Source of the DNA: Candidatus Omnitrophota bacterium
GTDB taxonomy: Bacteria > Omnitrophota > Gorgyraeia > Gygaellales > JAHJCI01
Length of the DNA: 64,000 nucleotides
Reading direction: 5' to 3'
Assembly (NCBI GenBank): GCA_016783355.1
Contig: JADHWR010000001.1
Span: forward strand, 6,072-70,071
Every line of letters starts with the position of its first letter. Within the stretch, counting starts at the first letter, position 1. The notes under the pieces are model-generated. The model was not told the DNA's origin and made no database searches. It worked only from the letters and a program-made list of their open reading frames with translations. The position numbers were made by a program, and so were the translations under genes. This document shows positions 7,501 to 64,000 of the stretch, piece by piece.

Positions 7501-10500
7501 TGGGAAGACCGCACTCTTGCATTTTCAGTTTTGGCTCAACAACAATTACCGAACGACCAGAGTAATCTACACGTTTACCTAAAAGATTCTGCCTGAAACG
7601 ACCCTGCTTTCCTTTAAGCATATCCGCAAGGGATTTTAGGGGTCGATTATTCGCCGTCAAGACTGCGCGGCCATGTCTTCCGTTATCAAAAAGCGCATCC
7701 ACTGCCTCTTGAAGCATTCTTTTTTCATTGCGAATAATAATATCCGGAGAATTTAACTCAATCAGTTTTTTTAGACGGTTGTTGCGATTAATCACCTGAC
7801 GATATAAATCATTCAAATCAGAAGTAGCAAATCTACCGCCATCTAAAGGAACCAGAGGCCTTAGGTCTGGCGGTATAACAGGAAGAACCTCCAAAACCAT
7901 CCATTCAGGCTTGTTGCCTGACTTTTTATAATCCTCGACAAACTTAAGATTTTTTAATAACTTTCGACGAGAAAGATTATCTTTAGACTGAGCGAGGGTT
8001 TTTTTCATTCTGGCAATCAGCTCATCTAAATCTGCTTCCTTCAATAAATCCTGAATTGCCCCTGCTCCAATTTTAGAGACAAAACCTTTATGTTTTTGTC
8101 GTGCTTGTGTATTTTCCTCTTCTGGAAGAAGTTGGCCCCTTTTATACGGCGAATCGCCTGGCTCGCTCACAACGTATGCCTCATAATAAATTATCTTTTC
8201 CAACTCACGCAGCCCCAAACCCAATATGGCCGAAAGCCTGCCGGAGACAACCTTAAAAAACCAGACATGTGTTACGGGTGCGGCTAATTCTATCTGTCCC
8301 ATGCGCTGACGGCGCACCATCGAATGCGCCACGGTTACGCCGCAACGGTCACAGGTAATTCCCTTAAACTTTATACCCTTATATTTGCCGCAGTGACACT
8401 CCCAGTCCTTCGCTGGCCCAAAAATCCTTTCGCAAAAGAGTCCATCTTTTTCCGGCTTAAGCGTACGATAATTAATTGTTTCTGCCTTTCTCACCTCGCC
8501 GCTTGACCAGCTGCGAATAACCTGTGGCGAGGCGATCTTTATACCTAAACTTTCAAATTGATTTGGGTTCTCCTCCCTTAGCTCCTGCTTTTCTATACGA
8601 ATATCAAGACATAAAGCTTGTAATTCTTTCATCAATACATGAAATGACTCGGGAATTCCGGGAAAAATCCTTTGTTCTCCTTTGACAATTGCCTCGTAAA
8701 TTTTTGTCCGGCCGCTAACATCGTCGCTTTTCACGGTAAGCATCTCTTGTAAAATAAAGGCAGCGCCATAGGCCTCTAAAGCCCAAACCTCCATCTCTCC
8801 TAAGCGCTGACCCCCAAACTGTGCCTTTCCTCCTAAAGGCTGCTGAGTAACTAAAGAATAGGGGCCTATAGAGCGGGCATGAATCTTCTCCTCAACAAGA
8901 TGAATCAACTTCATCATATAAATATATCCCACAGAGATATTTTGGGCAAAGGGCTCGCCTGTATAGCCGTCAAAGAGTGTAATTTTACTATCCTCAGGTA
9001 GCCGTGCTTCTTTAAGCATTTGCCTTATTTCTTCCTCGCTTGCTCCATCAAATACAGGAGAGGCAACTTTTATACCCAGACTATGCGCTGCCCAACCAAG
9101 ATGAGTCTCTAAAATCTGGCCGACATTCATGCGCGAAGGAACGCCTAAAGGATTTAAAACAATCTCGACTGGTTCCCCCGATGGCAAAAAGGGCATATCT
9201 TCTTCTGGTAAAATTCTTGCAACTATCCCCTTATTGCCATGACGGCCGGATAACTTATCTCCCTCTTGAAGCCTGTGCTTTGTAGCAATATAGACGATAA
9301 CCTGCTTAAGAACACCGCTCGGTAATTCATCGCCCCGACGCACTGCTTCAATCTCCTGCTTCATCTGAATATCCAATGCCTTGATCTGTTCTACATAAGG
9401 CTGGTTTATCTGGTTTGTTTCAGGATACGTACTTAAATCTAAGTCTGTTAATTCCTCTCTATCTACTTTTAAAACGTCGCACAGCCGCCTCATTCTTTCT
9501 TTATTAAGGAATTCCCTCTCTTCCTTATAATATTGTTTTATCTCCTTAATTCTTTTCTGCTGGCGCAACTTCTCTTCTTTAGACTTCCTCCCTCGCTCTC
9601 GACGACTAAATTCATCAATATGCACGACGATACCTTCGATACCGGGCGGAACAACTAACGAGGTATCGCGCACATCTTCAGCTTTTTTACCAAATATTGC
9701 GCGCAAGAGTCTCTCTTCCGCAGAAAGCTCTGATTCAGTGGTCGGTGTAACCTTGCCAACAAGAATATCCCCTGGCTCAGCCCAGGCGCCAATGCGCACA
9801 ATACCATTTTCGCCAAGACTAAGCAATGCCTCTTCGCTAACATTAGGAATATCCCGCGTAATCTCCTCGTTGCCTAAGCGCGTCTCTGTGGCTTCGATTT
9901 CCAACTTCTCGATATGAATAGAAGTAAAGGCATCTTCCTTGACTATCTTTTCAGAAATCAAGATTGCATCTTCAAAATTGTATCCTCGCCAGGGCATAAA
10001 GGCCACCAATAGGTTTCTGCCCAAAGCAAGTTCTCCATCTTGGGTTGCTATCCCATCGGCAATGATCTGACCTTCTTCTACAAAATCCCCTAACAAAACC
10101 AGCGGTCTTTGATTTATGCAAGTATCGGCATTGGTGCGCAGGAATTTCTTCAATCGATAAGTCTTTTTTCCAATGATGATTGTGGAGGCATCAACAAAGG
10201 TTACCTTGCCGGCCTCTTCGGCAATCACAACTGCACCAGAATCCTCTGCTATCTTCCTTTCCATCATTGTTCCTACAAGAGGTGCCTGCGGATTAAGCAG
10301 TGGCACTGCTTGACGCTGCATATTGGCTCCCATCAATGCGCGATTGGCATCATCGTGCTCTAAAAAAGGAATTAAGGAAGCGGATATCGAAATCAATTGC
10401 TTACAAGACACATCCATAAACTCCACCTTTTTGGCCGCAAGCTTGGGAAAATCAGCTTTAAAACGACAAGATACATCCTTCTCTAAAAGATGACCCCCCT

Positions 10501-11980
10501 TATCCAAGGCAGCATTAGCCTGCGCAATCACCTTTTGCTCATCCAGATCAGCAGTTAGGTATTCAATCTGCTTGGTTGCTTTTGCGTCTTTTACTTTGCG
10601 ATAAGGTGTCTCTAATAAACCGAGGGGGTTAATCCGGGCATATGTAGTCAAGGAAGTAATCAAGCCGATGTTTGGACCCTCGGGGGTTTCTATGGGACAG
10701 AGACGGCCATAATGTGAAGAATGTATATCTCTTACCTCAAAACTGGCGCGCTCGCGCGAGAGGCCACCCGGACCCAAAGCACTCAGCCGGCGTTTATGGG
10801 TTAACTCCGCTAATGGATTTACCTGATCCATAAACTGCGAGAGTTGACCGCGTGTAAAAAAATCATGGATTTGATTGGAAAAAATTTTGAAATTTATGAG
10901 ATGGTAAATGGTTAAGTCTTCTGTCTCGCCCATCAATGTCAATCTTTCTCGAATATTACGTTCAATTCGCGCAAGCCCAATGCGCACCTGATTCTGAGCT
11001 AATTCTGCTACAGTACGTACCCGCCGATTACCCAAATGGTCGATATCATCAATCTTTCCTTTTCCCTCTTTTAAACCGATAAGATAGTTAATAACCTTAA
11101 TTACTGTTTCGTAATCAAGAACTCTTTTATCCAGAGGGGTATCCATTCCTAATTTGCGGTTGAGGATAAATCTGCCGCAGCGACTGAGGTCATACCGGCG
11201 CACATCAAAAAATAAGCGGTAAAATAACTCGGCTGCTGCCTCGGGCGTAACCGGCTCACCCGGCCGCATCTTACGGAAAAAGTCTAATAGAGCTTCTTCT
11301 TTACTCTTTGTGTAATCCCTTTGCAGTGTATTGTTAATTACTGTATTATCTTTTCCAAAAAAACTTTGAATTTCTTCATCAGAGCTTAAACCTAATATAC
11401 GCAGGATCTGTGTGACGGGAAATGTCCGTCGACGATCAATAACTGCCAATATGGCTTCTGAAATATCATATTTAAATTCCAACCATGTTCCCCGATAAGG
11501 AATAATCCTTCCATAAAAAATGCGCTTTCCTGTTATATGCGTTTCCTCTTCAAAAGAAACACCGGGAGAACGATGAAGTTGAAAGATGACAACACGCTCA
11601 TCGCCATTAATAATAAAAGAGGCAGTAGGGGTCATCAAAGGAACCTCACCAAAAAACACATCCTGTTCTAATGTCCTGCTGGCAGAGATAAATCTAAATC
11701 TTACCCATAGTGGTGCAGCATAAGTCATTCCTCTTGTTTTACATTCCTCAATATCATATTTTGGATTACCCAATACATAATTGATAAACTCAAGCCGTAT
11801 GTGCCGGCTCGGTGTTTCAATAGGAAAGAAATTAAGAAACTCTTCCTGTAATCCTGAGCATCGCCTCTCTGAAAAAGGAACATCTTTTTGCAAAAAATCC
11901 TTATAGGCCTTGAGCTGATGCCTCAGAAGATTGGGTACTGAATATACTTCCTTTAGTTTTGCAAAACTCTTTCTCTTCAA
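4580..11980 (-). CDS. rpoBC: fused DNA-directed RNA polymerase beta-beta' subunit (RpoB-RpoC in one 2466-aa ORF)
   Basis: The N-terminal ~1130 aa carry RpoB motifs (GRHGNKG, the [10 protein letters not shown] region, C-terminal [15 protein letters not shown]). The ORF continues without a stop into the RpoC N-terminus ([36 protein letters not shown], zinc motif [21 protein letters not shown]). The junction is near 8545-8600. Confidence 0.9.
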
Positions 11981-12383: not shown

Positions 12384-12397
12384 TTTTTACCCCCTTT

Positions 12398-12492
12398 AAT
12401 GAGTCCGCCAAAGTTCGTTGGCGGACGAATTAATCCCGCTGAGTGTGCCAAAATTATAAAATAGAATTTTGGCACATATTACGAAGCGGGAT
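12398..12492 (-). promoter_or_regulatory. Two-hairpin leader element, copy 1 (rplJ-rplL spacer, ends just before the rplL SD)
   Basis: The minus-strand RNA reads AUCCCGCUUCGUAAUAUGUGCCAAAAUUCUAUUUUAUAAUUUUGGCACACUCAGCGGGAUUAAUUCGUCCGCCAACGAACUUUGGCGGACUCAUU, followed by AAAGGGGG-N7-AUG. The architecture matches 56938-57031 and 62985-63085. Confidence 0.7.
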
Positions 12493-15672: not shown

Positions 15673-16326
15673 TTATTCTAAGGCCTTTAAAAGCTCCTCA
15701 CCGAACTCTTTAGCTGCAAATGGACCAGCGGCAGTAATAATATTGCCATCTCTTACTACAGCTCCCCCTGTATAGTTAGCTCCTGCTTGTTGTAACTTCC
15801 CTGCTTCACTTGACCAAACAGTGGCAGATTTACCTTTAAGTAAGCCTGCCTTCGCCAGGATTACAGGAGCAATACAAATTGCGCCAACGATTTTATTTGC
15901 GGCAGAGGCATCCAATGCAATCTTATGGGCTTTGGCATTATCCCAATAAACGCTTGCACCACTGCCACCTATAAAAACCACAGCATCAAAATCAAAAGGA
16001 CTTAGCTCTTCAATCGTTAAATCAGGCTTTATTTTTGCTCCTAACATGCCCTGGGCATAATCTTGCGTAAAAGCAGCAACCTTAACTTCACAGCCTGCAT
16101 CCTCTAAAACCTGTTTGGGAATAAGTAGCTCTTCATCTCTGAAATTTTTCTGCGCAATAATCATCACTACTTTTTTCATCTCTTGGCCTCCTGCCTGCCC
16201 CGTTAGAAACTTTGTTTTTAACGGGGCCTGCGCCCAAACAACCTTTAAGAAAAAGGCACAAAAAAATCCAACCATTAAGCAAAAAACTGTTGTCCATTTC
16301 TGAAGTAGAACAAGATTCTTATTCAA
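15673..16326 (-). CDS. DJ-1/PfpI family protein (N-terminal hydrophobic extension; alternative start at MKKVVMII)
   Basis: Has the DJ-1 core VMIIAQKNFRDEEL and the nucleophile-elbow-like AICIAP. The N-terminal 50 aa contain the 29-bp TIR element. Confidence 0.8.
   Translation of the reverse strand: MNKNLVLLQKWTTVFCLMVGFFCAFFLKVVWAQAPLKTKFLTGQAGGQEMKKVVMIIAQKNFRDEELLIPKQVLEDAGCEVKVAAFTQDYAQGMLGAKIKPDLTIEELSPFDFDAVVFIGGSGASVYWDNAKAHKIALDASAANKIVGAICIAPVILAKAGLLKGKSATVWSSEAGKLQQAGANYTGGAVVRDGNIITAAGPFAAKEFGEELLKALE
16198..16226. mobile_element. 29-bp minimal TIR element (CCCCGTTAGAAAC-ttt-GTTTTTAACGGGG) flanked by cctg/cctg
   Basis: The sequence reads cctg|ccccgttagaaactttgtttttaacgggg|cctg. 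It translates as PLKTKFLTG inside the DJ-1 ORF. Confidence 0.7.
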
Positions 16327-26267: not shown

Positions 26268-26913
26268 TTAAAACATCCCAAATCATCTTAACCTGTTTTT
26301 TTGTCTCAGATTTCGTCCCACTATTATCAATAACAAAATCAGCTAAATTTAGCTTCTTTTTTAATGGCATCTGCAAATTTATGCGCTTTTTAATTTCCGA
26401 AAGGCAAAATCCCTTTTTTTTAAGGCGCAATTTTTGAATGTCTGACCTTGCCCTTACGGCAATTATCTTATCCACGATTCTCGCCAGTCCTGCTTCGATT
26501 AATAAGGGTGCATCAATTATAATAAACTTAAAATTTCGGGCCTGCTGAATCTGTATTTTAATTTCCTTAATTATTCCTGGATGCAGAATTTCGTTGAGCT
26601 TCTTTAGGGAATGCTTATTTCTGAAAGCACTCTTAGCTAACCTTTTTCGATTAATCTGTTGATTCCTGGAAAGTATCCTTTCCCCAAATGCCGCAAGAAC
26701 CCGCCTGTAAGCCCCGTTCGAAGTAAGGCGCCCAAGGCGACTGCCCCGCCAAATTCCGTGGCGGGGACTTCTAACGGGGTAAGCCTTTTTCTTGGGCTCG
26801 ATTAACTGATGCGCAATCCTATCTGCATCAATAATCTGAGCGCCTAATTGTTTAAAATAGTGCGCGCACGTCGTCTTCCCTGTGCCAAAACTGCCGGTAA
26901 TACCAACAATCAT
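26227..26913 (-). CDS. coaE: dephospho-CoA kinase, carrying a 24-codon element insertion
   Basis: [15 protein letters not shown] has the P-loop at the likely start (26913, an ATGA overlap with the glgA stop). The [11 protein letters not shown] and LHP-type motifs are present. Confidence 0.88.
26712..26779. mobile_element. 68-bp TIR element in frame inside coaE, flanked by taag/taag
   Basis: The sequence reads taag|ccccgttcgaagt aaggcgcccaaggcgactg ccccgccaaattccgtggcgggg acttctaacgggg|taag. It encodes [23 protein letters not shown]. Confidence 0.85.
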
Positions 26914-28295: not shown

Positions 28296-30964
28296 TTAAT
28301 CTCCTCCATCTCTAACCAATTCTTACCCTTCTTTATTACTACCTTTATGGGAACAGAAAGGGCTAAGGCATTCTCCATCTCATAAGATATCATCTCAATT
28401 GCCCTCTGCAATTGCCCGTTCGGTATCTCAAAAATAAGTTCATCGTGAATTTGCAGGAGGAGCTTCGCCGAAAGCGTTCTTTCCTCAATCTTCTGATATA
28501 TCTTAATCATCGCCATCTTAATTAAATCTGCTGCCGAGCCTTGGATGGATGAATTTACTGCCTGCCTTTCGGCAAATGCACGAACTGCGGCATTCTGATG
28601 ATTAATGTCAGGGAGATAGCGATGGCGACCTAAAATAGTTGTTACAAAATTGTCTTTTTTTGCCTTTTCAATCTGCCTGGCGATATAATCTTTTACTCTG
28701 GGATACCTTAAAAAATAGGCATCAATAAAGCGAGTTGCCTCCTCCCTTGAAATTCCTAATTCCCTTGCTAAACCAAAGGAAGATAGACCATAAATAATTC
28801 CAAAATTTATGCGCTTTGCTACTTCTCGCATCTGATCATTGACAATAGAATCCTCTGTGCCATAAACTAAAGAGGCAGTGGCACGATGTATGTCTTTGCC
28901 TTGCGAAAAAGCATCAATCAGCACCTTCTCGCCTGATAAATGTGCCAGAACCCTTAATTCTACCTGAGAATAATCAAAAGAGACCAAAAAATTATCCTCG
29001 CAACTCGTGATGAAAGCCTTTCGTATCTTGCGCCCTAACTCTGTCTTAATCGGTAGATTTTGCAAATTAGGATTAGAGGAGCTCAGTCTTCCCGTCTGTG
29101 TTCCTGTTTGATTGAAGAATGTATGAATGCGCAGGGTTTTTTTATCTGCCAGTTCCATTAAGGCATCGATATAAGTAGATTTTATTTTACAAAGCATACG
29201 ATATTCCAATAAAATTTTTGGTAAGGGATGCTGGCTTGCTAAGACAGCAAGAACCTCCTCATCGGTAGAGGCGCCTGTCTTTTTCTTTTTTATCACCGGC
29301 AGTTTTAATTTCTCAAAAAGAACCTGACGTAGCTGTAAGGGTGAGTTGATATTAAACGGCCCACCAGCAAGATGATAAATTTTACTGACCAGGCCTTTGC
29401 GCTTTTCTTCAATTTCAATGCCCAAGGCTTTAAGAAACTCTAAATCAAGCTTTATACCCTCTAATTCCATCTGCGCTAAAACAGGAATCAAGCGAATCTC
29501 TAAGTCGCAAAAGATGCGAAAGCTATCTTTAAGCTTTAGTTCTTTCTCTAAAACCGACTTAAGTGTTCCAATAACAACACAAACCTCAAGTGGACTTATC
29601 TTTCCTGCCCCGTTCGAAGTCCCCGCCGTAGGCGGGGCAGTCGCCCCGGGCGTCTTACTTCGAACGGGGCCTGCATCCAAAATTCTCTTCAGATAATCCC
29701 AGCACAGGCTCTCAAGACTATAATCAGACCGGGACGGATTCAAAAGATAAGCAGCAATCATCGTATCAAAACCTAACCCTTCTAGGGCGATATTATGCCG
29801 GGCTAATCGCAAAAAGATATCTTTTAGATTGTGGCCGATTTTCTTAATCTTTGGGTCTCTAAGGACAGGTTCAATGCTCTTTAAGGAGCCTTTCTCTAAT
29901 TCTAAAAAAGAATCACTCTCTGGAAGATAAACTGTCAACCCCTCCTCATTCATATAGAGAATCAACTCACCTGCCTGCCTAAACTGATCAATCCCGGCAA
30001 CCTGCCTGTTGGCACTTCGACGGAGTTTATCCCGAGCGAAGTCGAGGGACTCAGTGCTAGCACTCCGACTTCGCTCAGTGCCAACCCTGAGCTTGTCGAA
30101 GGGTTGCTCAGGTAAATCTTTAAGAAATTTTTTAAATTCTAACTCACGAAAGATTTCATAAAGATTTCTATAGTCAGGCTTCTTTATCTTTAAACTTTGC
30201 GCATCAAATTCTATATCTAAATCTGTCCTTAATTGTGCAAGATAATGACATAGTTTTATTTGCTCAATCTTTTCTTTCAAGCGAGAACGAAGCTTTTGTT
30301 CTTTTATCTGATCCAAATTCAATAAGAGATTTTCCAGAGACTTAAATTTATCCAGGAGCTTGGTGGCGGTCTTTTCTCCTATGCCAGGAACACCCGGGAT
30401 ATTATCAGCTGTATCTCCGGCAAGAGCAATAAAGTCAGCAATTCTGCCGGGTAAAAATCCGTATTGGCGCTTAACCCCTGCCACATCATAAATTATCTTT
30501 TTGTCTTTATGAGGATGCAGAACAATAACTCCCTCATCCACTAATTGCAAGATATCCTTATCAGCGCTGACAATCATTATTGTAAAATCCTTCTCTTTTG
30601 CCTTCCTGGTTAATGTCGCAATAACATCGTCTGCTTCAAAGCCCTCCTTCTCAAATATATTAATTCCAAAGGCCTTGATTATCTTTTTAATGTAAGGCAG
30701 TTGAGTCACTAAATCCGCAGGCATAGGAGGACGTTGTATCTTGTAACGCGCAAATTCTTTTTGGCGAAATGTGTGCCTTGAGACATCAAAACATACACCC
30801 ATATACTGCGGATTTATCTCTTTTAAAACCTTATTCAGAAAATTCACAAAGCCATAAATAGCATTGGTACAAAGACCGTAAGAGGTCGCAAGCCCCCTTA
30901 TGGCATAATAGGCGCGGTAACAGATGCCGTTGGCATCAATAAGTACTACTTGGGCTTTATCCAT
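28292..30964 (-). CDS. polA: DNA polymerase I, carrying two different in-frame repeat insertions
   Basis: 890 aa. Has a 5' nuclease domain (GIPGVPGIGEKTA), pol motif A (SFDYSQVELRVLAH), motif B (RR.AK..NFGIIYG) and motif C (QIHDELIFE). Confidence 0.95.
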   Translation of the reverse strand: MDKAQVVLIDANGICYRAYYAIRGLATSYGLCTNAIYGFVNFLNKVLKEINPQYMGVCFDVSRHTFRQKEFARYKIQRPPMPADLVTQLPYIKKIIKAFGINIFEKEGFEADDVIATLTRKAKEKDFTIMIVSADKDILQLVDEGVIVLHPHKDKKIIYDVAGVKRQYGFLPGRIADFIALAGDTADNIPGVPGIGEKTATKLLDKFKSLENLLLNLDQIKEQKLRSRLKEKIEQIKLCHYLAQLRTDLDIEFDAQSLKIKKPDYRNLYEIFRELEFKKFLKDLPEQPFDKLRVGTERSRSASTESLDFARDKLRRSANRQVAGIDQFRQAGELILYMNEEGLTVYLPESDSFLELEKGSLKSIEPVLRDPKIKKIGHNLKDIFLRLARHNIALEGLGFDTMIAAYLLNPSRSDYSLESLCWDYLKRILDAGPVRSKTPGATAPPTAGTSNGAGKISPLEVCVVIGTLKSVLEKELKLKDSFRIFCDLEIRLIPVLAQMELEGIKLDLEFLKALGIEIEEKRKGLVSKIYHLAGGPFNINSPLQLRQVLFEKLKLPVIKKKKTGASTDEEVLAVLASQHPLPKILLEYRMLCKIKSTYIDALMELADKKTLRIHTFFNQTGTQTGRLSSSNPNLQNLPIKTELGRKIRKAFITSCEDNFLVSFDYSQVELRVLAHLSGEKVLIDAFSQGKDIHRATASLVYGTEDSIVNDQMREVAKRINFGIIYGLSSFGLARELGISREEATRFIDAYFLRYPRVKDYIARQIEKAKKDNFVTTILGRHRYLPDINHQNAAVRAFAERQAVNSSIQGSAADLIKMAMIKIYQKIEERTLSAKLLLQIHDELIFEIPNGQLQRAIEMISYEMENALALSVPIKVVIKKGKNWLEMEEIK
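29608..29669. mobile_element. 62-bp TIR element in frame inside polA, flanked by cctg/cctg
   Basis: The sequence reads cctg|ccccgttcgaagt ccccgccgtaggcgggg cagtcgccccgggcgtctt acttcgaacgggg|cctg. It encodes PVRSKTPGATAPPTAGTSNGA. Confidence 0.85.
30011..30108. repeat. Palindromic 'FDKLRV'-type repeat inserted in frame in polA
   Basis: It contains gagcgaagtcg...agtgctagcact...cgacttcgctc and accctgagcttgtcgaaggg. The same words occur in the tandem arrays at 31007-31200. It encodes PFDKLRVGTERSRSASTESLDFARDKLRRS. Confidence 0.75.
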
Positions 30965-31006: not shown

Positions 31007-31071
31007 CCTCGACTTCGTCCCTCGACTTCGTCCCTCGACTTCGTCCCTCGACTTCGTCCCTCGACTTCGCT
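31007..31071. repeat. 13-bp tandem repeat x5 (cctcgacttcgtc)
   Basis: Four perfect copies plus one variant, read directly from the sequence. Confidence 0.9.
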
Positions 31072-31200
31072 CGGGACGACCCTGAGCTTGTCGAAGGGTC
31101 GCTCGGGACGACCCTGAGCTTGTCGAAGGGTCGCTCGGGACGACCCTGAGCTTGTTGTCGAAGGGTCGCTCAGTGTCAATCCTGAGCTTGTCGAACGGAT
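31072..31200. repeat. 32-bp tandem repeat x3 plus a partial copy (cgggacgaccctgagcttgtcgaagggtcgct); each unit has a GACCCT...AGGGTC hairpin
   Basis: Units lie at 31072, 31104 and 31136 (the third has a 3-bp tgt insertion). A partial copy follows as cctgagcttgtcgaacgg. Confidence 0.9.
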
Positions 31201-31207
31201 TGAATTA

Positions 31208-32152
31208 TTAGTTTTTAGGGGTTAATTCCGTGGCTATCTTTTCTAAAGTCTGCTTTGCAGTTACAATATCATCCTGCTCATAGAATCTGATCGCATCTTG
31301 AAACTTGGCCTGCATAATAGCGATGTGTTCTTGTTTTTGTTTTTCTTTAATCTCTTTATTTATTTTATCTATTAAGGTCAAAAATGAGTCTCTGTCTGAC
31401 GGGTCCAAAGAAATGGCTAACACCAGTGCATTTTTTGCTTCCTCTATTTTGTGCTCTTCATATAAATCATCAGCCAGTTCCTTAAGTTTTTGAATCTCTT
31501 TTAACTCTGTTAATCTGACTGCCTTTTTATGAATGGCGAGCTCACGCACTAAACTAAGCGTCTCTTCCTCTATCAACTCCTGCTGAAGAGAAGGCTGAGT
31601 CTCTGCGATGGCCTGGCGTCTGCGTTTCGCCCACTCCACCCAAGACTCACCGGGAATTCCCAATTCTATACGTTTTTTCCAATAATCAAAAGCCTTCTTT
31701 AGTTCTCTTTTTTGCTCATAAAGCATAGCTAAATTTGAATATAAATTATGATACTGGGGATTTAATTTTAGTCCAACTAAATAAATCTTCTCTGCCCTAT
31801 CAAGTAAACCCTTGGCCTCAAACATAATTCCTAAATCATTGTAAGCAATAACATAAGCAGGGTCTAACTCAATTGCCTTCTGATAACAGACTGTGGCACT
31901 ATCTAAATCACCGCGCTGCTGAAACTGCAAACCTTGACTTCGAAGAAGACGTGCCTCTTTTTGAAAAGTAGTTTGTTTCTGCGCAAAAAGTGAGGTTGGG
32001 AAACAGAATAAGTTAATTGTTATAAATAAATTAATTGCTACAAAAGAGATAATTCCCTTTGTAAACCCCGTTCGAAATTCCTCCAATCTTTGCTTAAGGC
32101 TTAATGATACATAAGTAGCCGAGGCTTTTGAATCTATCTTAAATCTATGCAT
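31208..32152 (-). CDS. TPR-repeat protein with signal-peptide-like N-terminus; current start codon lies inside a TIR element
   Basis: TPR-like repeats (A...Y.KAIELDP..., NLG..FE..G....A...Y...L.L.P). The hydrophobic segment IISFVAINLFITINLFCFPTSLFA follows. Confidence 0.75.
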   Translation of the reverse strand: MHRFKIDSKASATYVSLSLKQRLEEFRTGFTKGIISFVAINLFITINLFCFPTSLFAQKQTTFQKEARLLRSQGLQFQQRGDLDSATVCYQKAIELDPAYVIAYNDLGIMFEAKGLLDRAEKIYLVGLKLNPQYHNLYSNLAMLYEQKRELKKAFDYWKKRIELGIPGESWVEWAKRRRQAIAETQPSLQQELIEEETLSLVRELAIHKKAVRLTELKEIQKLKELADDLYEEHKIEEAKNALVLAISLDPSDRDSFLTLIDKINKEIKEKQKQEHIAIMQAKFQDAIRFYEQDDIVTAKQTLEKIATELTPKN

Positions 32153-32171
32153 ATCTAAATTTCGAACGGGG
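32066..32171. mobile_element. 106-bp TIR element (no ORF of its own) inserted in the 5' end of the TPR gene, flanked by taaa/taaa
   Basis: The sequence reads taaa|ccccgttcgaaat...80 bp...atttcgaacgggg|taaa. It supplies the ATG (32152) and the first 29 codons of the present TPR ORF. Confidence 0.85.
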
Positions 32172-32433
32172 TAAACCCCGTTCGAAATAGGAAACGCTTT
32201 AATCTATCGTTCAAATAGCGTTTACCCTTTCCAGACTTCAGGTGTTTTTCTCTACTCATTGCATCATATTTATTTAGACAGGCTTCATAATAAATAAGCT
32301 TAAAGGGGCCTCTATTCTTAGTAGAAGACACCTTTCCTGAATTATGCTCACTAAAGCGTTTCCGTAAATCATTCGTTAAGCCTGTATACCATTTTTTATC
32401 TTTCTGGCTTTGAATTACATAAACATAATGCAT
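32155..32433 (-). CDS. small GIY-YIG nuclease family protein (YhbQ/UPF0213-like)
   Basis: 92 aa. MHYVYVIQS....WYTGLTNDL.KR..EHN.GK matches the GIY...YIG-type motifs (YVY / WYTG), a conserved Arg and E..HN. The C-terminal FRTGFTPFEI is encoded by the TIR junction. Confidence 0.85.
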   Translation of the reverse strand: MHYVYVIQSQKDKKWYTGLTNDLRKRFSEHNSGKVSSTKNRGPFKLIYYEACLNKYDAMSREKHLKSGKGKRYLNDRLKRFLFRTGFTPFEI

Positions 32434-32454
32434 TGCTTGTTATTTCGAACGGGG
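32176..32454. mobile_element. 279-bp TIR element whose cargo is the complete GIY-YIG gene, flanked by taaa/taaa
   Basis: The sequence reads taaa|ccccgttcgaaat...253 bp...atttcgaacgggg|taaa. The 13-bp TIR is perfect. The GIY-YIG ATG sits 8 nt inside the right TIR. Confidence 0.85.
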
Positions 32455-32511
32455 TAAATTGAGGCATCTTGATTTTAAGATACATTAAAAAAGCAAAAAG
32501 TCAAGAAAATA

Positions 32512-39282: not shown

Positions 39283-40440
<1,158 letters not shown>

Positions 40441-43287: not shown

Positions 43288-45378
43288 CTATAGTTTTCTT
43301 GCTATCTTCTCAATTTTATAGCCTTCCATTATATCGCCTATTTTATAATCAGAAAAATTACCTATGGATATGCCGCACTCATAACCTTCAGATACCTGAG
43401 AAACCTCATCTTTAAAACGCCGAAGATTGCTAATCTTTCCGCTAAAGATAGTAGTGTTGTCTCTGATTATATCTATATTGAGCGTGCGCAAGATCTTACC
43501 CTTAGTTATAGTACACCCCGCCACAACACCACTTCGCGAGAGATTAAAAACCTGCTTCACGCGTGCCTGTCCAAAAGATACCTTTTTTATCTTTGGGCTT
43601 AACAACCCTTCTAAAGCCGCCTTTATCTCCTCGACTAATTCATAAATTATATTGTATGTCCTTACCTCCACCTGCTCTTTTTTAATTAATTCCTTTGCTC
43701 GCTCTTCTATATTTATATGAAAACCCAAGATTAGCGCATCAGAGACAGACGCCAGCATTACATCTGAAGTGTTAATTAAGCCCACTCCTTTATGGGTTAT
43801 CTTAAATTTTACCTCTTTTGTCTCTAATTTTATTAGAGAATCCCGCACCGCCTCTAATGAGCCGAATGTGTCTGCTTTAATAATAATCTTCAGCTCTTTA
43901 AGAACACCGTTTTTTATTTCCTGATGTAAATCCTCCAGCGAAAACCGATGTGGTGAAATATTCCTTTTTTCCTTTGTCTCGCGCAGCGAGATAAGTGCTC
44001 TTGCCCCTTTCTCGTCCTTGACAACAAAAAATCTCTCTCCTGCCTCAGGCACGGATTCAAAACCTAAAATTCCCACAGGCTGACTGGCAGTAGCTTCCTC
44101 AACTCTCTGGCCACAGTCATTAAATATTGCCTTTACCTTTGCTAAGTTCTTCCCCGCAACAAGTAGATCATTAAGATGTAATTTTCCATTCTGCACCAAT
44201 AAAGTTGCCAGAGGACCCCTGTTTGGGTCCTGTCTTGCCTCAATAACAACACCCCTTGCTATCTGATTATAATCTGCTTTCAATTCTAACATTTCTGCCT
44301 CTAAAAGAATCATCTCTAATAATTCATCTATGCCCTGACCGGTTTTGGCAGAAACCTCTACCGTTACGGTCTTGCCTTGCCACTCCTCAGGAACTAAACC
44401 AATATCAGCAAGTTGCTTCTTTACCCTATCTACGTTAGCCTGAACTCGATCAACTTTATTTATGGCGACAATTATAGGAACCTCAGCATCTCGGGCATGG
44501 TTAATTGCCTCAATTGTCTGAGGCATAACACCATCATCAGCAGCAACCACTAAAACAACAATATCTGTAATCTGTGCGCCCCGTGCACGCATTGCCGTAA
44601 ATGCCTCATGACCGGGTGTATCCAAAAATGCAATCTTACCCTTATCTAAATTAACCTCATATGCACCGATGTGCTGGGTTATGCCTCCATGTTCAAAATC
44701 AACGACCTTTGTCTTTCTAATCATATCCAAAAGGGAGGTCTTACCATGGTCAACATGACCCATAAATGTTACTACGGGTGGACGAACATTTAAATCCTGA
44801 GGCTGGCTTGATACCTCATGTAAGGAAAGCAGGCGTTCTTCTAAAGAGGGAGCCTGCTTGACTTTAAAGCCAAAATTCTCACAAACCTGCTCTACTTCAT
44901 CTTTTCCTAAAGATTGGTTAATGTTGGCTAGGATTTTTAACTTTAAAAGTTCCTGCATTAGCTGCGAGAGTTTAATTTGAAGCTTAACCGCTAAATTCTT
45001 AACAGAAATAGGGAAATCTAATTCTAATACCTTAGCTTGTGGCGCCTCTTCAACCAAAATTGCTTGTAGCTGCTGGGGTTGAGGCTCTAAGGTCTTTGCT
45101 TGAATTTTAGACTTGCGGGAGACTCTTCTCTTTGGTTTAGGGGCTATTTCTTTCCTCTTGATTTGCTTTTTGCCTGGCTCTTTTCGTAGGACCGCAGGCT
45201 TTTTTGCTTTCCTTGCCCCGTTTGAAATCCCTCGCCTAACGGCGGGGGCAGCTACCTTTGGTGTCTTACTTCGAACGGGGTTTGGCTTTGTAGAGGAAGC
45301 CCTTAAGCGAGTCTTTGAAGCCTTTCTCACTTTAGTTTTTAATGCTTTTGGTTTCTTAGGTTTTTTTATCTTTTTCAT
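43288..45378 (-). CDS. infB: translation initiation factor IF-2, carrying a 23-codon element insertion in the basic N-terminal region
   Basis: 696 aa. Has the G domain [21 protein letters not shown] and NKVD. Confidence 0.94.
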   Translation of the reverse strand: MKKIKKPKKPKALKTKVRKASKTRLRASSTKPNPVRSKTPKVAAPAVRRGISNGARKAKKPAVLRKEPGKKQIKRKEIAPKPKRRVSRKSKIQAKTLEPQPQQLQAILVEEAPQAKVLELDFPISVKNLAVKLQIKLSQLMQELLKLKILANINQSLGKDEVEQVCENFGFKVKQAPSLEERLLSLHEVSSQPQDLNVRPPVVTFMGHVDHGKTSLLDMIRKTKVVDFEHGGITQHIGAYEVNLDKGKIAFLDTPGHEAFTAMRARGAQITDIVVLVVAADDGVMPQTIEAINHARDAEVPIIVAINKVDRVQANVDRVKKQLADIGLVPEEWQGKTVTVEVSAKTGQGIDELLEMILLEAEMLELKADYNQIARGVVIEARQDPNRGPLATLLVQNGKLHLNDLLVAGKNLAKVKAIFNDCGQRVEEATASQPVGILGFESVPEAGERFFVVKDEKGARALISLRETKEKRNISPHRFSLEDLHQEIKNGVLKELKIIIKADTFGSLEAVRDSLIKLETKEVKFKITHKGVGLINTSDVMLASVSDALILGFHINIEERAKELIKKEQVEVRTYNIIYELVEEIKAALEGLLSPKIKKVSFGQARVKQVFNLSRSGVVAGCTITKGKILRTLNIDIIRDNTTIFSGKISNLRRFKDEVSQVSEGYECGISIGNFSDYKIGDIMEGYKIEKIARKL
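45216..45280. mobile_element. 65-bp TIR element in frame inside infB (flanks cttg / tttg)
   Basis: The sequence reads cttg|ccccgtttgaaat ccctcgcctaacggcggggg cagctacctttggtgtctt acttcgaacgggg|tttg. It encodes PVRSKTPKVAAPAVRRGISNGA. Confidence 0.8.
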
Positions 45379-46637: not shown

Positions 46638-46797
46638 GTCGCCACAAAAACGTTGACGACCCGCCAAAGTATTGTGGCGGGATTTGCACCAGAAAGTCGC
46701 CACAAAGCGTTGGCGACCCGCCAAAGTATTATGGCGGGATTTGCACCAGAAAGTCGCCACAAAGCGTTGGCGACCCGCCAAAGTATTATGGCGGGAT
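46638..46797. repeat. 57/58-bp tandem repeat x3, each unit made of two hairpins (GTCGCCA-N8-TGGCGAC and CCGCCA-N8-TGGCGG), in the rimP-nusA spacer
   Basis: Units start at 46638, 46696 and 46753. Further CCGCCAA...TTGGCGG hairpins follow to about 46850. One inverted copy lies at 63563-63607. Confidence 0.9.
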
Positions 46798-46853
46798 TGG
46801 CGCATCCGCCGGTTCTTATTGGAGGCGAATCCGCCAATTATTTTGGCGGAAGC

Positions 46854-56232: not shown

Positions 56233-56922
56233 CTATTTTATATTCTCCACCGGCTCTTCAAGTTCGATAATTTCAATTTCCTCCTCCCCTTCTAAAACTG
56301 TTGCTGGTTCTTCTAAATCTTTTGTCTCTTTGACCTTAATCATCTTCGGCAGAATTACTACTTCCACACGACGATTTAGCTGCTTACCTTCTTTTGTGTC
56401 ATTAGAGGCTACAGGCTGATACTCACCGTAGCCAACTGCCGAAGCACGCTGGGGCGAAATTCCCTTTTTATCAACAAGATAATGCAATGTACTTAAAGCT
56501 CGCGCTGTGGATAATTCCCAATTCGACTTCCAACCAGAATATCTAATTGGTTCGTTATCAGTATGTCCTTCAATACCAATAAGATATTGCGACACATTTT
56601 CTTTTAAAACACGGGCGACCTTATCTAAAATTGGAAAGGATTCTGAGCGTAGCTTCGCTTTGCCCGAATCATACAAGATATCTGCCAAAAAGGTAATCAC
56701 CAAACCTCTTTCAGCCATCTCCAACCGTACTTCTTTACGAGCAATCTCCTCTTTGAGACGCTGCTGAAGCAACTGGTGGACGTTTCTTAAATATCCTATT
56801 TCTTGCGAAAGTTCATCGATCTTCTCAATATCTGAACGTCTACCCGCTTGAAATTTAAACATGCAGCCCGCTAAACTTACTGTCATAAAAAATACAGCCA
56901 ATACTAATGCTTTTTTCTTCAT
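56233..56922 (-). CDS. OmpA/MotB-domain lipoprotein
   Basis: 229 aa. Has a lipobox-like LAGC and an OmpA C-like domain (F..G.A.L......L..VA..L.......I.IEGHTDN.P........NWELS.ARA......L......NRRVEVVI). Confidence 0.85.
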   Translation of the reverse strand: MKKKALVLAVFFMTVSLAGCMFKFQAGRRSDIEKIDELSQEIGYLRNVHQLLQQRLKEEIARKEVRLEMAERGLVITFLADILYDSGKAKLRSESFPILDKVARVLKENVSQYLIGIEGHTDNEPIRYSGWKSNWELSTARALSTLHYLVDKKGISPQRASAVGYGEYQPVASNDTKEGKQLNRRVEVVILPKMIKVKETKDLEEPATVLEGEEEIEIIELEEPVENIK

Positions 56923-56937
56923 CGCTCCTACCTCCTC

Positions 56938-57031
56938 AATGAGTCCGCCAAAGTTCGTTGGCGGACGAATTGATCCCGCCGAATGCTCTAAAATTATCAG
57001 GGAGAATTTTAGAGCAGTTTATGAGGCGGGG
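56938..57031 (-). promoter_or_regulatory. Two-hairpin leader element, copy 2 (immediately upstream of the OmpA-like gene SD)
   Basis: The plus strand reads aatgagtccgccaaagttcgttggcggacgaattgatcccgccgaatgctctaaaattatcagggagaattttagagcagtttatgaggcgggg. On the minus strand it is followed by CUCAUUGAGGAGG-N8-AUG. Confidence 0.7.
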
Positions 57032-57116
57032 TATGTACATTATTTGGGTCATTCCATAAGTCTCGTCCTTACTTATTTTAAATTATATCTATACCTTCGT
57101 CAATATCTATAAATTT

Positions 57117-62358: not shown

Positions 62359-62972
62359 GGATTATCTCCTTGTTCCTTAGTGATAATCACCTGATCAACC
62401 AATCCATATTCTTTTGCCTCTTGCGCAGACATAAAATAATCGCGGTCTAAATCCTTTTGAATCTTCTCTATTGGCTGTTTGGTATGTATTGAAAATATCT
62501 TATTTATGCGGTCACGCAACTTCAAAATCTCCTTTGCATGTCGTGAAATATCCTCTGCCGCGCCCTGAATTCCTCCCCACGGTTGATGAATCATCACCCT
62601 CGAATTGGGTAAAACAAGGCGCTTGCCCTTTGTTCCCGCACATAAAAGCAAAGCCGCCATACTTGCTGCCTGGCCAACACAATAAGTAGCGACATCAGGT
62701 TTGACAAACTGCATTGTATCATATATAGCTAAGCCTGCTGTAACAGAACCACCTGGACAATTTATATAGATACTTATCTCTTTATTTACATTTTCCATTT
62801 GCAAGAAAAGCATCTGAGCAATAACAAGGTTAGCAATATTATCATCAATTGGTGAGCCAATAAAAATGATGCGGTCCTTAAGAAGCCGTGAGTAGATATC
62901 ATAAGCGCGTTCATAACCACGGGCTGTCTGTTCAATCACCATGGGAACCAAGGTTTGATTTTTTATCTGCAT
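62355..62972 (-). CDS. clpP: ATP-dependent Clp protease proteolytic subunit
   Basis: 205 aa. Has [28 protein letters not shown], catalytic GQAASMAA and MIHQP. Confidence 0.95.
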
Positions 62973-62984
62973 TGTGACCTCCTC

Positions 62985-63085
62985 AATGAGTCCGCCAAAG
63001 TTCGTTGGCGGACGAATTGATCCCGCCGAATGCTCTAAAATTATCCCCTGCGGGGAGAATTTTAGAGCAGCTTATGAGGCGGGAT
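62985..63085 (-). promoter_or_regulatory. Two-hairpin leader element, copy 3 (between tRNA-Gly and the clpP SD)
   Basis: The minus-strand RNA reads AUCCCGCCUCAUAAGCUGCUCUAAAAUUCUCCCCGCAGGGGAUAAUUUUAGAGCAUUCGGCGGGAUCAAUUCGUCCGCCAACGAACUUUGGCGGACUCAUU, followed by GAGGAGG-N5-AUG. Confidence 0.7.
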
Positions 63086-63116
63086 ATACATTATTATAGT
63101 AATCTCTTAAAACTAA

Positions 63117-63189
63117 AGCGGGAGACGGGCTTCGAACCCGCGACATTCACGTTGGCAACGTGATGCTCTACCAACTGAGCTACTCCCGC
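63117..63189 (-). tRNA. tRNA-Gly(GCC)
   Basis: The minus-strand sequence GCGGGAGTAGCTCAGTTGGTAGAGCATCACGTTGCCAACGTGAATGTCGCGGGTTCGAAGCCCGTCTCCCGCT folds as a cloverleaf. The anticodon loop is TTGCCAA. Confidence 0.9.
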
Positions 63190-63302: not shown

Positions 63303-63371
63303 CAAAACCCCATCAGCAAAAACAAGTTCACTGAGCCACCCGCGACTCGAACGCGGCACACCCGCCTTAAA

Positions 63372-63697
63372 CATTTTTGTTAACTGTATGTCGCCATACA
63401 GATCAGACTATCCCATCCCCCTCACGCTTATCCTTAAAAAAGAAAGCGATGGGGGTCTCGATTATAGTCGTTGAACCTTCCCAGTACTTATTTGCTAAGA
63501 TAATTTCTGATTCAAATAAATGCCGGGCTTGGCTGCAGATTGTCTGCATTTAAGAATTTTTACCCCCGCCACAATACTTTGGCGGGTCGCCAATGCTTTG
63601 TGGCGACAGACATAAAGGGTATCTTAAAATACTCAGACTTTCCCGCAATTTACGAGATTCTCACTATTGATTTCTCAATAATGGCCCCTTTTTCGCG
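63372..63697 (-). ncRNA. Group I-like intron (no ORF), with a repeat module inserted at the P5 tip
   Basis: It starts after an exon U and ends in G. Hand-folded pairings are listed here:
- P1: GCCCU/GGGGC.
- P2: CAUUAUUGA-GAAA-UCAAUAGUG.
- P3: UCUCG/CGAGA, followed by J3/4 UAAAUU.
- P4: GCGGG/UCUGC, followed by J4/5 AAA.
- P5: GUCUG/CAGAC.
- The conserved AGCCAAGCC word.
- P6: CCCGG.../...CUGGG.
- P7: GACUAU/AUAGUC.
- P8: CCCCC.../...GGGGG.
- P9: UGUAUG-GCGA-CAUACA. Confidence 0.72.
63563..63607. repeat. Single inverted copy of the 46.6-kb double-hairpin repeat unit, embedded in the intron
   Basis: The plus strand reads ccccgccacaatactttggcgggtcgccaatgctttgtggcgac. This is the reverse complement of the gtcgccacaaagcgttggcgacccgccaaagtattatggcggg unit at 46696-46738. 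Confidence 0.85.
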
Positions 63698-64000
63698 AGG
63701 GCGGTGCTCTACCAGATGAGCTAGTGGCCCATTTCTATCTTAAATTTGTAATTATTGCCAAAGAACAAAATCTATATCTATTTCTGATAAGATTTTAATA
63801 ATAAATCTAAGATTTTTCTCTTTGAAATTTTTCTTTTCCAAATTCCATTCTTTCTGCTCGCATTTATATAAATTCTAGGCGAAAAATTTATCTCTTTAGC
63901 AAATCTTAATAAGTTTTCCCTTTTGGAGATTTCTATCTCAGTGCCCCTTTTATTAATTCTGCTCTTTATACCAAAACCATTTAATAAATCTTTTATCTGT

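Follow-up and report, generated by a model that had tools for sequence, protein, structure and literature searches.

A modular two-hairpin repeat docked at Shine-Dalgarno sequences of unrelated genes in an Omnitrophota genome

Three copies of a two-hairpin element of 97-103 nt lie in a window of 64,000 nucleotides from a Candidatus Omnitrophota bacterium (assembly GCA_016783355.1, contig JADHWR010000001.1, positions 6,072 to 70,071 of the forward strand; the window is the whole of this stretch, numbered from its first letter). Each copy stands directly 5' of the Shine-Dalgarno sequence (SD) of a different gene, namely rplL (copy 1), a gene for an OmpA/Pal-like lipoprotein (copy 2) and clpP (copy 3). 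A previous reading made from the letters and open reading frames (ORFs) of this DNA, referred to here as the sequence-only reading, had taken the element for a conserved leader of three unrelated genes, and the Pfam domains of the flanking genes (L10, L7/L12, OmpA-domain lipoprotein and ClpP) agree with the identities that it had assigned downstream. Direct reading recovers in every window copy the layout that it had described: a long hairpin (HP1), U(C/U)AAUUC, a short hairpin (HP2), CUCAUU, the SD and AUG. We found exactly three window matches to the 24-nt short hairpin GTCCGCCAA-CGAACT-TTGGCGGAC, all on the minus strand (HP2 in Table 1), with no additional window match at up to three mismatches; 100 dinucleotide shuffles contained no match. 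A stretch of 69 nt has 100% identity between copies 2 and 3, whose differences lie mostly at the tip of the long hairpin (repeat families D1 and D6), where the apical loop is variable and copy 3 carries the extra mini-hairpin that had been reported. All window copies are in sense orientation and abut the SD, and the element would, as proposed earlier, be part of the downstream mRNA.

The positions of copy 1 after rplJ and of copy 3 after a tRNA cluster, in which tRNA-Gly and tRNA-Leu precede the copy, were also read correctly before. No promoter-like site was found between tRNA-Gly and copy 3, which suggests that clpP is probably co-transcribed with the tRNA cluster. Promoter-like sites inside the window copies were likewise looked for and none was found. 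The promoter upstream of copy 2 is, as judged from relatives that have a strong promoter at the equivalent place (loci L013 and L016), not part of the repeat. Since the same element sequence occurs in independent ENA assemblies, an artefact of assembly is excluded; the same organism is represented in ERZ24794672, ERZ24794676 and ERZ24794679. With filters off, a covariance model built on the element core (R1) recovered no window copies beyond the three known ones, and its other matches were all weak, lying in related hairpins of the stretch 46.6-46.85 kb and of a group I intron.

We searched for the element elsewhere with a genome scan of one genome per species, which gave six loci (L001 and the type-B loci L002-L006 described below), and with a metagenome scan using the element-specific 3' flank, which gave two loci (L007 and L008). 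Locus L001, from another Omnitrophota metagenome-assembled genome (MAG), contains a homologous two-hairpin element before an SD and AUG. At L007 the element lies in the 5' untranslated region (UTR) of a gene for a 50-aa DUF5679 zinc-ribbon protein, approximately 25 nt past a TTGACA-17-TAAAAT promoter. L008 holds an orphan copy that is antisense to local transcription; on one side of it lie a c-di-GMP-I-like aptamer and the terminator of that aptamer, and on the other a gene for a GH1 glycosidase that starts approximately 200 nt onward. The type-B repeats comprise six copies in five loci (two in L005) and contain the identical short hairpin with the same UUC...UC flanks, set in a palindrome that reads GUCAUUGCGAG...GAGAUUGC-UUC-hairpin-UC-GCAAUGAC as RNA and GTCAT(T/C)GCGAG ... 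GAGATTGC-TTC-GTCCGCCAA-N6-TTGGCGGAC-TC-GCAATGAC as DNA (e.g., L005 430-506 and 1290-1369; L004 3565-3657), and whose 5' arm is the reverse complement of the 3' arm minus the hairpin (GATTCTTCGCTTCGCTCAGAATGAC in L003). Their hosts are Omnitrophota, unclassified and Planctomycetia-labelled MAGs of 40-65% GC, and the copies lie between unrelated genes without attachment to SDs; the L002 copy is antisense to both of its flanking genes (queA and a GT2 glycosyltransferase gene). The proposed association with gene starts thus extends to the copies at L001 and at DUF5679 genes, which are docked, but fails for the antisense copy of L008 and for type B.

Known families gave no account of the element. 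Rfam returned nothing at the element at gathering thresholds on the window, and at E<=1 or E<=10 on eleven copy-bearing loci it returned only hairpin noise of the microRNA-precursor type; the type-B repeat had no Rfam match either. A viral-contig scan and a plasmid blastn search gave 0 matches each, and a concatenated six-frame peptide query for mis-called ORFs spanning the element had no match at E<=10. Literature searches by sequence words returned unrelated primers, and no paper on Omnitrophota repeats or non-coding RNA surfaced.

Two of these loci hold further features of their own. The aptamer of L008 (1434-1568, minus strand) resembles c-di-GMP-I-GGC at 55.9 bits (E = 1.6e-10), just below the gathering score of 59, and a terminator-like hairpin follows it; the interval between aptamer and GH1 gene contains, besides the antisense element copy, CGCCAATGCTTTGTGGCG hairpins with an 18-nt core exactly shared with the hairpin of a 57-nt repeat of the window (its intron copy). 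At L002 (2600-2640) queA seems to have a TATAAT box that ends 7 nt before the ATG, with no SD (GCTATAATGTATTATG), directly beside the type-B repeat, and the mRNA may be leaderless.

We found that folding with ViennaRNA alters one part of the structure first described. The segments UnAAU and AUUnA, taken before as unpaired linkers, pair with each other, and the short hairpin as revised consists of a 5-bp lower stem UnAAU/AUUnA, a symmetric 2x2 UC/UC internal loop, a 9-bp upper stem and a 6-nt loop. Two hairpins are predicted in every copy, and the window copies fold much more stably than shuffled sequences, with z values of -4.7 to -6.9. The compensations reported in the long hairpin stand as stated: copy 1 differs from copies 2 and 3 at one outer-stem position (CCCGCU/AGCGGG versus CCCGCC/GGCGGG) and at three positions of the 11-bp inner stem (GUGCCAAAAUU/AAUUUUGGCAC versus GCUCUAAAAUU/AAUUUUAGAGC), with both arms changed and all three inner positions compensated. 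The lower stem takes the form of six different helices once the type-B repeats are included: UCAAU/AUUGA (copies 2 and 3), UUAAU/AUUAA (copy 1) and UAAAU/AUUUA (L007, L008 and L042, a DUF5679 locus described below) in the window type, and AUUCU/AGAAU (L002), AUCCU/AGGAU (L003) and AUUGC/GCAAU (L004-L006) in type B. Within the window-type family one lower-stem position occurs as three Watson-Crick pairs (C-G, U-A and A-U), and the exceptions are a 1-nt deletion in L001 and one U-U mismatch in L043. The covariation score and percentage paired of the joint alignment were reached by 0 of 500 shuffles, in a test that is conservative because the alignment is partly mis-registered. The additional gene-start copies also keep the pairings first proposed.

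The upper stem behaves differently from the lower one. Across copies its sole change is one C-to-U that gives a G-U pair, while the 6-nt loop varies freely, and this combination of constant stem and variable loop is the pattern of sequence-specific stem recognition rather than that of a purely structural RNA helix. The UC/UC internal loop is unchanged in all 13 copies of both families; this mismatch on the sense strand corresponds to tandem GA/GA on the opposite strand.

Hundreds of orthologues of the OmpA-like protein exist at 58-72% identity, and the gene order is conserved. In three relatives (L012, L013 and L016; OmpA-protein identity 65-72%) the element is absent from the purA-ompA and tig-clpP spacers; a strong promoter and an SD of the same type (AGGAGGTA...) are present in their purA-ompA spacer, and clpP stands directly after tig, with an SD and no element at the clpP orthologues of L013 and L016. 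Closer comparisons come from the DUF5679 gene. The filled locus L007 and the empty locus L020 encode proteins that are 94% identical and share the same promoter and an identical SD-to-ATG segment (AAAGGAGGAAACAAATG), and among four contigs that encode one identical DUF5679 protein (P0122), two are filled (L042 and L043) and two are empty (L040 and L041). A decayed remnant of the element occupies the same DUF5679 site in L019, and the N-terminal extension ...WRRAHLKEETQM of a mis-called DUF5679 homologue (P0132) suggests a further element variant. No target-site duplication was seen in the L007/L020 and L042/L040 comparisons. The element is thus gained, lost or exchanged between closely related genomes and is not an ancestral leader of these genes, so the earlier description of a conserved leader does not hold 5' of ompA and clpP or at the identical DUF5679 genes.

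The same 5' region hosts unrelated hairpin elements as well. In L043 (118-185) a palindromic element GGGTTACG-GAGCGAAGC-CCCGCCCTTTG-CTTA-CAAAGGGCGGG-ACGAAGCGA-CGTAACCC lies just 5' of the docked element. In other Omnitrophota, an unrelated two-hairpin element of approximately 104 nt (CCCTCCTTGTAGAAATTCC...GGAATTTCTTAGAAAAGGAGGG plus GAGCCTCGGAC-TTTC-GTCCGAGGGGCTC) occupies the DUF5679 5' UTR in some contigs and is missing from others: L031 (1340-1445) and L034 (2815-2920) are filled and L032, L033, L035, L037 and L039 are empty, with an identical protein and no target-site duplication. This polymorphism demonstrates that hairpin repeats arrive in and disappear from 5' UTRs of this phylum.

The filled DUF5679 contigs also indicate which part of the element is conserved. 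L042 and L043 keep the CCCGCC...GGCGGG base, GGGAUAAAUUC, the junction GGGAU(A/U)AAUUC, the closing G...C, UCAUUUAAA and the docking at the SD, while their HP2 is the unrelated sequence GCAC-A-UUGACUUAUGU...ACAUAAGUCAA-GUGC and their HP1 interiors differ from each other despite the identical DUF5679 protein. The short hairpin, said before to be perfectly conserved, is identical in the window copies but is replaced here with the junction kept. Our data indicate an anatomy of three modules: HP1 is a conserved base (AUCCCGCC...GGCGGGAU) with a freely replaceable interior; the conserved junction GGGAU-nAAU-UC ... UC-AUUn-A has halves that pair as the 5-bp lower stem around the UC/UC loop; and HP2, usually GUCCGCCAA-N6-UUGGCGGAC, is replaceable too. 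Because L042 and L043 keep the junction while HP2 as such and the HP1 interiors differ, the conserved core of the element is the junction and not the hairpins, and conserved arms with variable centres recur in every module.

We found docking at the SD in five gene contexts (rplL, ompA-like, clpP, the membrane protein gene of L001, and DUF5679), with a distance from UCAUU to AUG of 12-16 nt in all five and 0-3 nt between the element end and the SD core. All gene-linked copies are sense-oriented. The sequence that follows UCAUUnA is GGAGGU, GGGGGU, GGAGAU, AAGGAGGAA or AAUAGGAGGAA, and it equals the empty allele or orthologue where one exists. Since the same SD is found in orthologues and empty alleles that lack the element, the SD is native to the gene and outside the repeat; the earlier statement that the element is fused to the SD is right in that each copy abuts an SD, but the SD itself is the gene's own. 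That copies 2 and 3 remain identical through GAGGAGGT reflects the consensus SD of both genes. By our estimate, neutral insertion into 5' UTRs of approximately 30 nt would give such docking in perhaps 1 in 10 cases per locus.

Table 1. Positions of the element copies, their gene signals and other repeats and features in the window
Feature	Position	Strand	Remark
Copy 1	12396..12492	minus	between rplJ and rplL
Copy 1 HP1	12492-12433	minus	base AUCCCGCU/AGCGGGAU; begins 4 nt past the rplJ stop codon (12499-12497)
Copy 1 lower stem	12433-12429 with 12400-12396	minus	UUAAU with AUUAA
Copy 1 HP2	12426-12403	minus	
rplL SD	12395-12390	minus	AGGGGG; directly after copy 1; ATG at 12383
Copy 2	56936..57032	minus	5' of the OmpA/Pal-like lipoprotein gene
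Copy 2 HP1	57032-56973	minus	
Copy 2 lower stem	56973-56969 with 56940-56936	minus	
Copy 2 HP2	56966-56943	minus	
OmpA-like gene native SD	56935-56931	minus	GGAGG; directly after copy 2; ATG at 56922
Sigma-70-like promoter	57075..57103	minus	TTGACG-17-TAAAAT; OmpA-like gene; ~30 nt 5' of copy 2
Copy 3	62983..63085	minus	5' of clpP; covariance model R1 score 66.7 bits
Copy 3 HP1	63085-63020	minus	base AUCCCGCC/GGCGGGAU; extra CCCC-GCA-GGGG tip
Copy 3 lower-stem 5' strand	63020-63016	minus	UCAAU; internal-loop UC at 63015-63014
Copy 3 HP2 upper stem and loop	63013-62990	minus	followed by UC at 62989-62988
Copy 3 lower-stem 3' strand	62987-62983	minus	AUUGA
clpP native SD and start	62970..62982	minus	SD GGAGG 62982-62978, abuts copy 3; start codon 62972-62970
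tRNA-Gly(GCC)	63117..63189	minus	immediately 5' of copy 3
Three tandem 57-nt units with a further hairpin	46647..46851	minus	rimP-nusA spacer of ~300 nt
UCCGCCAA-N5-UUGGCGGA hairpin	46830-46851		between rimP and nusA
Inverted copy of the 57-nt-repeat two-hairpin unit	63565-63610		inside the group I intron
Intron-split tRNA gene	63340-63735	minus	L009 7009-7854
Group I intron	63384-63707	minus	RF00028, 88 bits
Palindromic element in coaE	26690-26790		
Palindromic element in polA	29600-29680		
Palindromic element in infB	45205-45285		
Palindromic element in tgt	39860-39902		
Palindromic element, further sites	16190-16235, 32060-32460		
rpoB-rpoC fusion	4580-11980	minus	single 2466-aa ORF
Tandem repeats	31007-31198		13-nt (x4-5) and 32-nt (x3-5)
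ARAGORN "tRNA-Pro"	31068-31153		probably a false call

Taken as a whole, we consider it somewhat probable that the element is a mobile, modular repeat whose function is secondary or modest. Our best reading of the comparisons is a lineage-restricted, non-coding Omnitrophota repeat that would form a new family among the small structured intergenic repeats, alongside REP2/Borrelia IR, miniature inverted-repeat transposable elements (MITEs) and REP. Such a repeat may have spread as hairpin-forming DNA, either by single-strand hairpin-directed transposition of the HUH/Y1 type or by recombination at the conserved junction, two routes suggested by the lack of terminal inverted repeats and target duplication. 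The likeness to HUH/Y1 ends or single-strand recombination sites follows from the same two absences, from the strand asymmetry of the UC/UC loop and from the pairing of the 5' foot sequence with sequence on the 3' side. Copies would persist mainly where expression is unharmed or mildly helped. Once in place, the element would be co-transcribed as part of a 5' UTR or intercistronic spacer, with two stacked hairpins that leave the SD free, and a stabiliser or ribosome-binding-site (RBS) insulator effect on the mRNA is plausible. The most probable effect at the RNA level would be that of a structural barrier and insulator before the RBS, which could protect the downstream cistron after processing of the tRNAs or of the rplJ-rplL transcript by blocking 5'-end-dependent decay, and could isolate the RBS from upstream sequence. 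The compensated stems had been offered as the signature of a selected RNA structure. Mobile hairpin DNA shows compensated palindromic arms too, and the stems therefore leave selection at the RNA level unproven.

Several of our own results pull away from a mobile repeat with modest function. Mobility is deduced from presence and absence alone, and no transposase, target duplication or clean insertion boundary was found: the called genes in approximately 82 kb of this genome include no transposase, and a Pfam scan of the ORFs beside type-B copies detected no transposase domain. Filled and empty alleles differ by the replacement of approximately 15-20 nt and not by a simple insertion, and their alignment gives no clean boundaries. 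The covariance model R1 finds three copies in approximately 82 kb of this genome versus none in 163 kb of other Omnitrophota. The docking, as judged from its exactness in five of six loci, is real and far tighter than neutral insertion would give, so that either targeting or selection must exist. The conserved, strand-asymmetric UC/UC loop and the covariation of the lower stem would be compatible, too, with an RNA motif bound by a protein. Finally, the element or its remnant at one DUF5679 site in L007, L042/L043, L019 and probably the P0132 gene could reflect long-term retention of a kind that fits function.

These points lead to the alternative in which the element is a selected cis-acting RNA leader (a 5' stabiliser, translation enhancer, RBS insulator or RNA-binding-protein site) that is kept for raising or standardising the expression of abundant proteins such as L7/L12, the Pal-like lipoprotein, ClpP and DUF5679, and in which mobility only distributes the cassette. 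We regard this as possible, though the evidence leans away from it. The sense orientation and constant AUG spacing of the gene-linked copies, a docking much tighter than random insertion, the covarying lower stem, the UC/UC loop conserved through both families and the occupation of the DUF5679 site in several lineages are all what a leader would predict. Both hairpins are moreover very stable with the SD predicted mostly unpaired, and copies 3 and 1 lie after processed tRNAs and after rplJ, respectively, where a new 5' end would need protection. A leader is harder to reconcile with the absence of the element at relatives' orthologues and in strains with an identical DUF5679 protein, where promoter and SD are unchanged, or with the decayed copy of L019, the antisense orphan of L008 and the replaceable hairpin sequences. 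The upper stem poses a further difficulty, since a purely structural RNA would show the opposite of an invariant stem with a variable loop, a combination that is characteristic of sequence-specific protein or DNA recognition. Where a promoter is predicted (copy 2 and L007), transcription would start approximately 25-30 nt 5' of the element, which would then not be 5'-terminal unless the RNA is processed. We also compared SD accessibility by partition-function folding and found predicted values of 0.35-0.94 with the element versus 0.39-0.95 without it, with no systematic difference; filled and empty alleles being alike, neither an element that keeps the SD open nor one that sequesters it has computational support.

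A bolder combination of mobility and function is a mobile "RBS cassette adaptor", in which the junction GGGAU-nAAU-UC / UC-AUUn-A would direct insertion to the 5' edge of the SD and the inserted element would then act as a protein-bound or self-structured insulator or 5' stabiliser for abundant mRNAs. We hold this to be doubtful. If true, it would imply a new way of recognising and targeting ribosome-binding sites, such as hairpin-guided HUH insertion beside the SD on single-stranded DNA, and some factor that reads the invariant GUCCGCCAA/UUGGCGGAC hairpin common to Omnitrophota and Planctomycetia-labelled genomes.

The constant arms of the short hairpin around a variable spacer, seen across MAGs of approximately 40-65% GC, would also suit a DNA-level protein site, with the 9-bp inverted repeat and variable 6-bp spacer acting as a dimeric-regulator operator (of a CIRCE/HAIR-like stress regulon with clpP among its members) or as a tyrosine-recombinase core. 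At the OmpA-like and DUF5679 genes the palindrome lies between promoter and SD, and clpP is a classic member of the heat-shock regulon. Such a site is nevertheless improbable here. Copy 1 lies in the rplJ-rplL spacer, where no promoter-like site was found on the coding strand, type-B copies are scattered among unrelated genes, and in L042/L043 the palindrome is swapped for an unrelated one at the same site with its flanking junction kept. A folded single strand, and not a duplex, is indicated by the conserved UC/UC mismatch, which is not palindromic, and by the covarying stem beside it. By direct reading there is no match to the CIRCE consensus (TTAGCACTC-N9-GAGTGCTAA) or to the attC consensus (GTTRRRY).

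An undescribed riboswitch, RNA thermometer or self-cleaving ribozyme before the RBS, perhaps RiboJ-like with its conserved junction and variable peripheral stems, is very improbable: the conserved junction with two replaceable stems, the place immediately 5' of the SD and a partly SD-complementary 5' arm of HP1 (CCGCCU) suit it, but there is no Rfam resemblance at E<=10, the genes concerned share no pathway, near-identical strains differ in having the element, the junction of approximately 20 nt is mostly paired A-U with little room for a catalytic or ligand pocket, and the own pairing of HP1 is far stronger than the anti-SD alternative. Pairing of CCGCCU with the SD does appear in some minimum-energy folds (L001 and a truncated copy 1). 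As a general anti-SD device against AGGAGG we rejected it in view of the much stronger pairing within HP1, and most of this complementarity would be expected of any C-rich arm that faces a G-rich SD. Other candidates fell to direct comparison. A boxA-like (G)CUCAUUUAAA after a boxB-like hairpin was rejected since its UUUA core is not kept in copies 2 and 3 (CUCAUUGAGG) and the stretch is base-paired; CRISPR since direct reading shows no unique spacers; a type III toxin-antitoxin system since the gene after the 57-nt repeats is nusA; and integron attC since direct reading shows no R''/R' core sites (RYYYAAC ... GTTRRRY). CIRCE and HAIR operators (TTAGCACTC-N9-GAGTGCTAA or CTTGAGT-N7-ACTCAAG) differ in sequence and the spacer here is 6 nt, and an L10 (rplJ) ribosomal-protein leader is excluded by the place of the element 3' of rplJ, by its occurrence before non-ribosomal genes and by the lack of an Rfam L10_leader match.

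The genome of the window is rich in other hairpin repeats. The rimP-nusA spacer holds three tandem 57-nt units, each consisting of CCCGCCA-N7-UGGCGGG and GUCGCCAA-N6-GUGGCGAC, as well as a UCCGCCAA-N5-UUGGCGGA hairpin; these repeats are related to the docked element and are not the same element. In the relative L013, rimP and nusA overlap and there is no spacer. The two-hairpin unit of the 57-nt repeat has one inverted copy inside a group I intron that splits a tRNA gene in its anticodon loop, possibly tRNA-Lys(UUU) by manual reading, and an ORF for a LAGLIDADG endonuclease lies just 5' of this tRNA and outside the intron. A different sequence family is formed by palindromic elements CCCCGTT(A/C)GAA ... 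TTCGAACGGGG (as RNA, CCCCGUU(A/C)GAA...UUCGAACGGGG), sometimes enclosing a CCCCGCCA...TGGCGGGG hairpin, which lie in-frame in housekeeping genes and add peptide inserts to CoaE, PolA (GPVRSKTPGATAPPTAGTSNGAG), IF2 (NPVRSKTPKVAAPAVRRGISNGAR) and Tgt, for example PVRSKTP...TSNGA. In this they resemble the Rickettsia palindromic elements (RPE; Ogata 2000) and show an RPE-like invasion by selfish hairpin DNA; their sequence is distinct from that of the SD-docked element. Elsewhere in the window, rpoB and rpoC are fused in one ORF with Rpb2 and Rpb1 Pfam domains, which is a single gene in an independent assembly too, and an ARAGORN tRNA-Pro call inside a tract of tandem repeats is unsupported by the Rfam tRNA model.

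Our data carry a caution for genome scans, namely that compensated stems and a position at gene starts can mimic a conserved riboregulator, when orthologous and near-identical loci show a mobile modular repeat. The SD-docked modular repeat of Omnitrophota, a phylum for which we know of no genetic system, appears undescribed, given that it is not in Rfam and that literature searches by sequence words found no description. Its docking is far more precise than that of ordinary MITE or REP insertions. If the docking reflects targeting, the repeat would be a mobile element that recognises ribosome-binding sites; if selection lies behind the docking, the repeat would represent a naturally occurring cassette that insulates or stabilises at the RBS, and synthetic biology could use it as a candidate part. 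Hairpin repeats of several families occur in at least this Omnitrophota genome, some of them inserted in-frame in essential genes and one copy lying within a group I intron, which bears on the evolution of these small genomes.

Among known systems, the hairpins of the E. coli ompA 5' UTR and RiboJ are functional analogues, being stable hairpins before an exposed SD that are expected to protect from 5'-end-dependent decay and to give context independence. They differ in being single-locus or engineered and not a repeated mobile family. The hairpin hp1 of ompA must sit at the extreme 5' end, a position that is not predicted here without processing, and RiboJ self-cleaves, whereas nothing here suggests cleavage. 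IS200/IS605-derived elements share with our repeat the subterminal hairpins at both ends (HP1 near the 5' end, HP2 7 nt from the 3' end) and the lack of terminal inverted repeats and target-site duplication. The sequences on the 5' and 3' sides of the hairpin foot pair with each other, which resembles the ends of the IS608 type, where guide and cleavage-site sequences reportedly pair (Barabas 2008; Guynet 2009). The left flanks of the element (CUU, CAU, UAU, GCU, UUA and AGU) show no clear motif.

The REP/BIME/REPIN sequences, which RAYT (Y1/HUH) transposases mobilise and which reach hundreds of copies per genome, are likewise short GC-rich imperfect palindromes (20-40 nt) with strand-specific asymmetry and without terminal inverted repeats or target-site duplication; HP2 measures 24 nt, and 38 nt once the lower stem and the UC/UC mismatch are counted. 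REPs lie typically 3' of genes and are not docked at SDs, and in mRNAs they reportedly act as stabilisers (Newbury 1987). Our repeat lacks the GTAG tetranucleotide of the REP/RAYT system, its flanks being AAUUC/UCAUU (sense) or AAUGA/GAAUU (antisense), and no RAYT or TnpA gene was found in approximately 82 kb of this genome and the flanks of type-B copies.

MITEs are bounded by terminal inverted repeats and duplicate their target site (TA in Correia and ERIC), and they insert at many positions, in both orientations relative to genes and not specifically at SDs. The ends of our element (..AUAUCCCGCC / ..CUCAUUGA) are, in contrast, not inverted repeats, and no target-site duplication was seen; a weak similarity of CCGCCUCA to the reverse complement of UGAGGAGG involves the gene's own SD. 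Like MITEs, our repeat is small, non-autonomous, insertion-polymorphic between related genomes and predicted to form RNA hairpins in mRNAs. The mRNA-borne hairpins of MITEs such as Correia/CREE in Neisseria and ERIC in enterobacteria and Yersinia can alter processing and stability (PMC3184786).

The closest described kind is formed by REP2 of Neisseria and IR-A/IR-B of Borrelia (Parkhill 2000; Morelle 2003; Dunn 1994; reviewed in Delihas 2011), repeats of 120-180 bp that lack terminal inverted repeats, contain two stem-loops in their interior, stand immediately 5' of genes unrelated to one another and bring a promoter, RBS and ATG of their own (PMC3184786). The Omnitrophota element differs in having no internal promoter-like site, in that SD and ATG belong to the gene, in its exchangeable hairpins, one of which is common to a second repeat family, and in its host phylum. 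The likeness, as we see it, is one of design and position: both are multi-copy intergenic repeats with two stem-loops and, by reading, no terminal inverted repeat, and both stand next to the RBS of unrelated ORFs, a position found here in five gene contexts with L008 as the exception.

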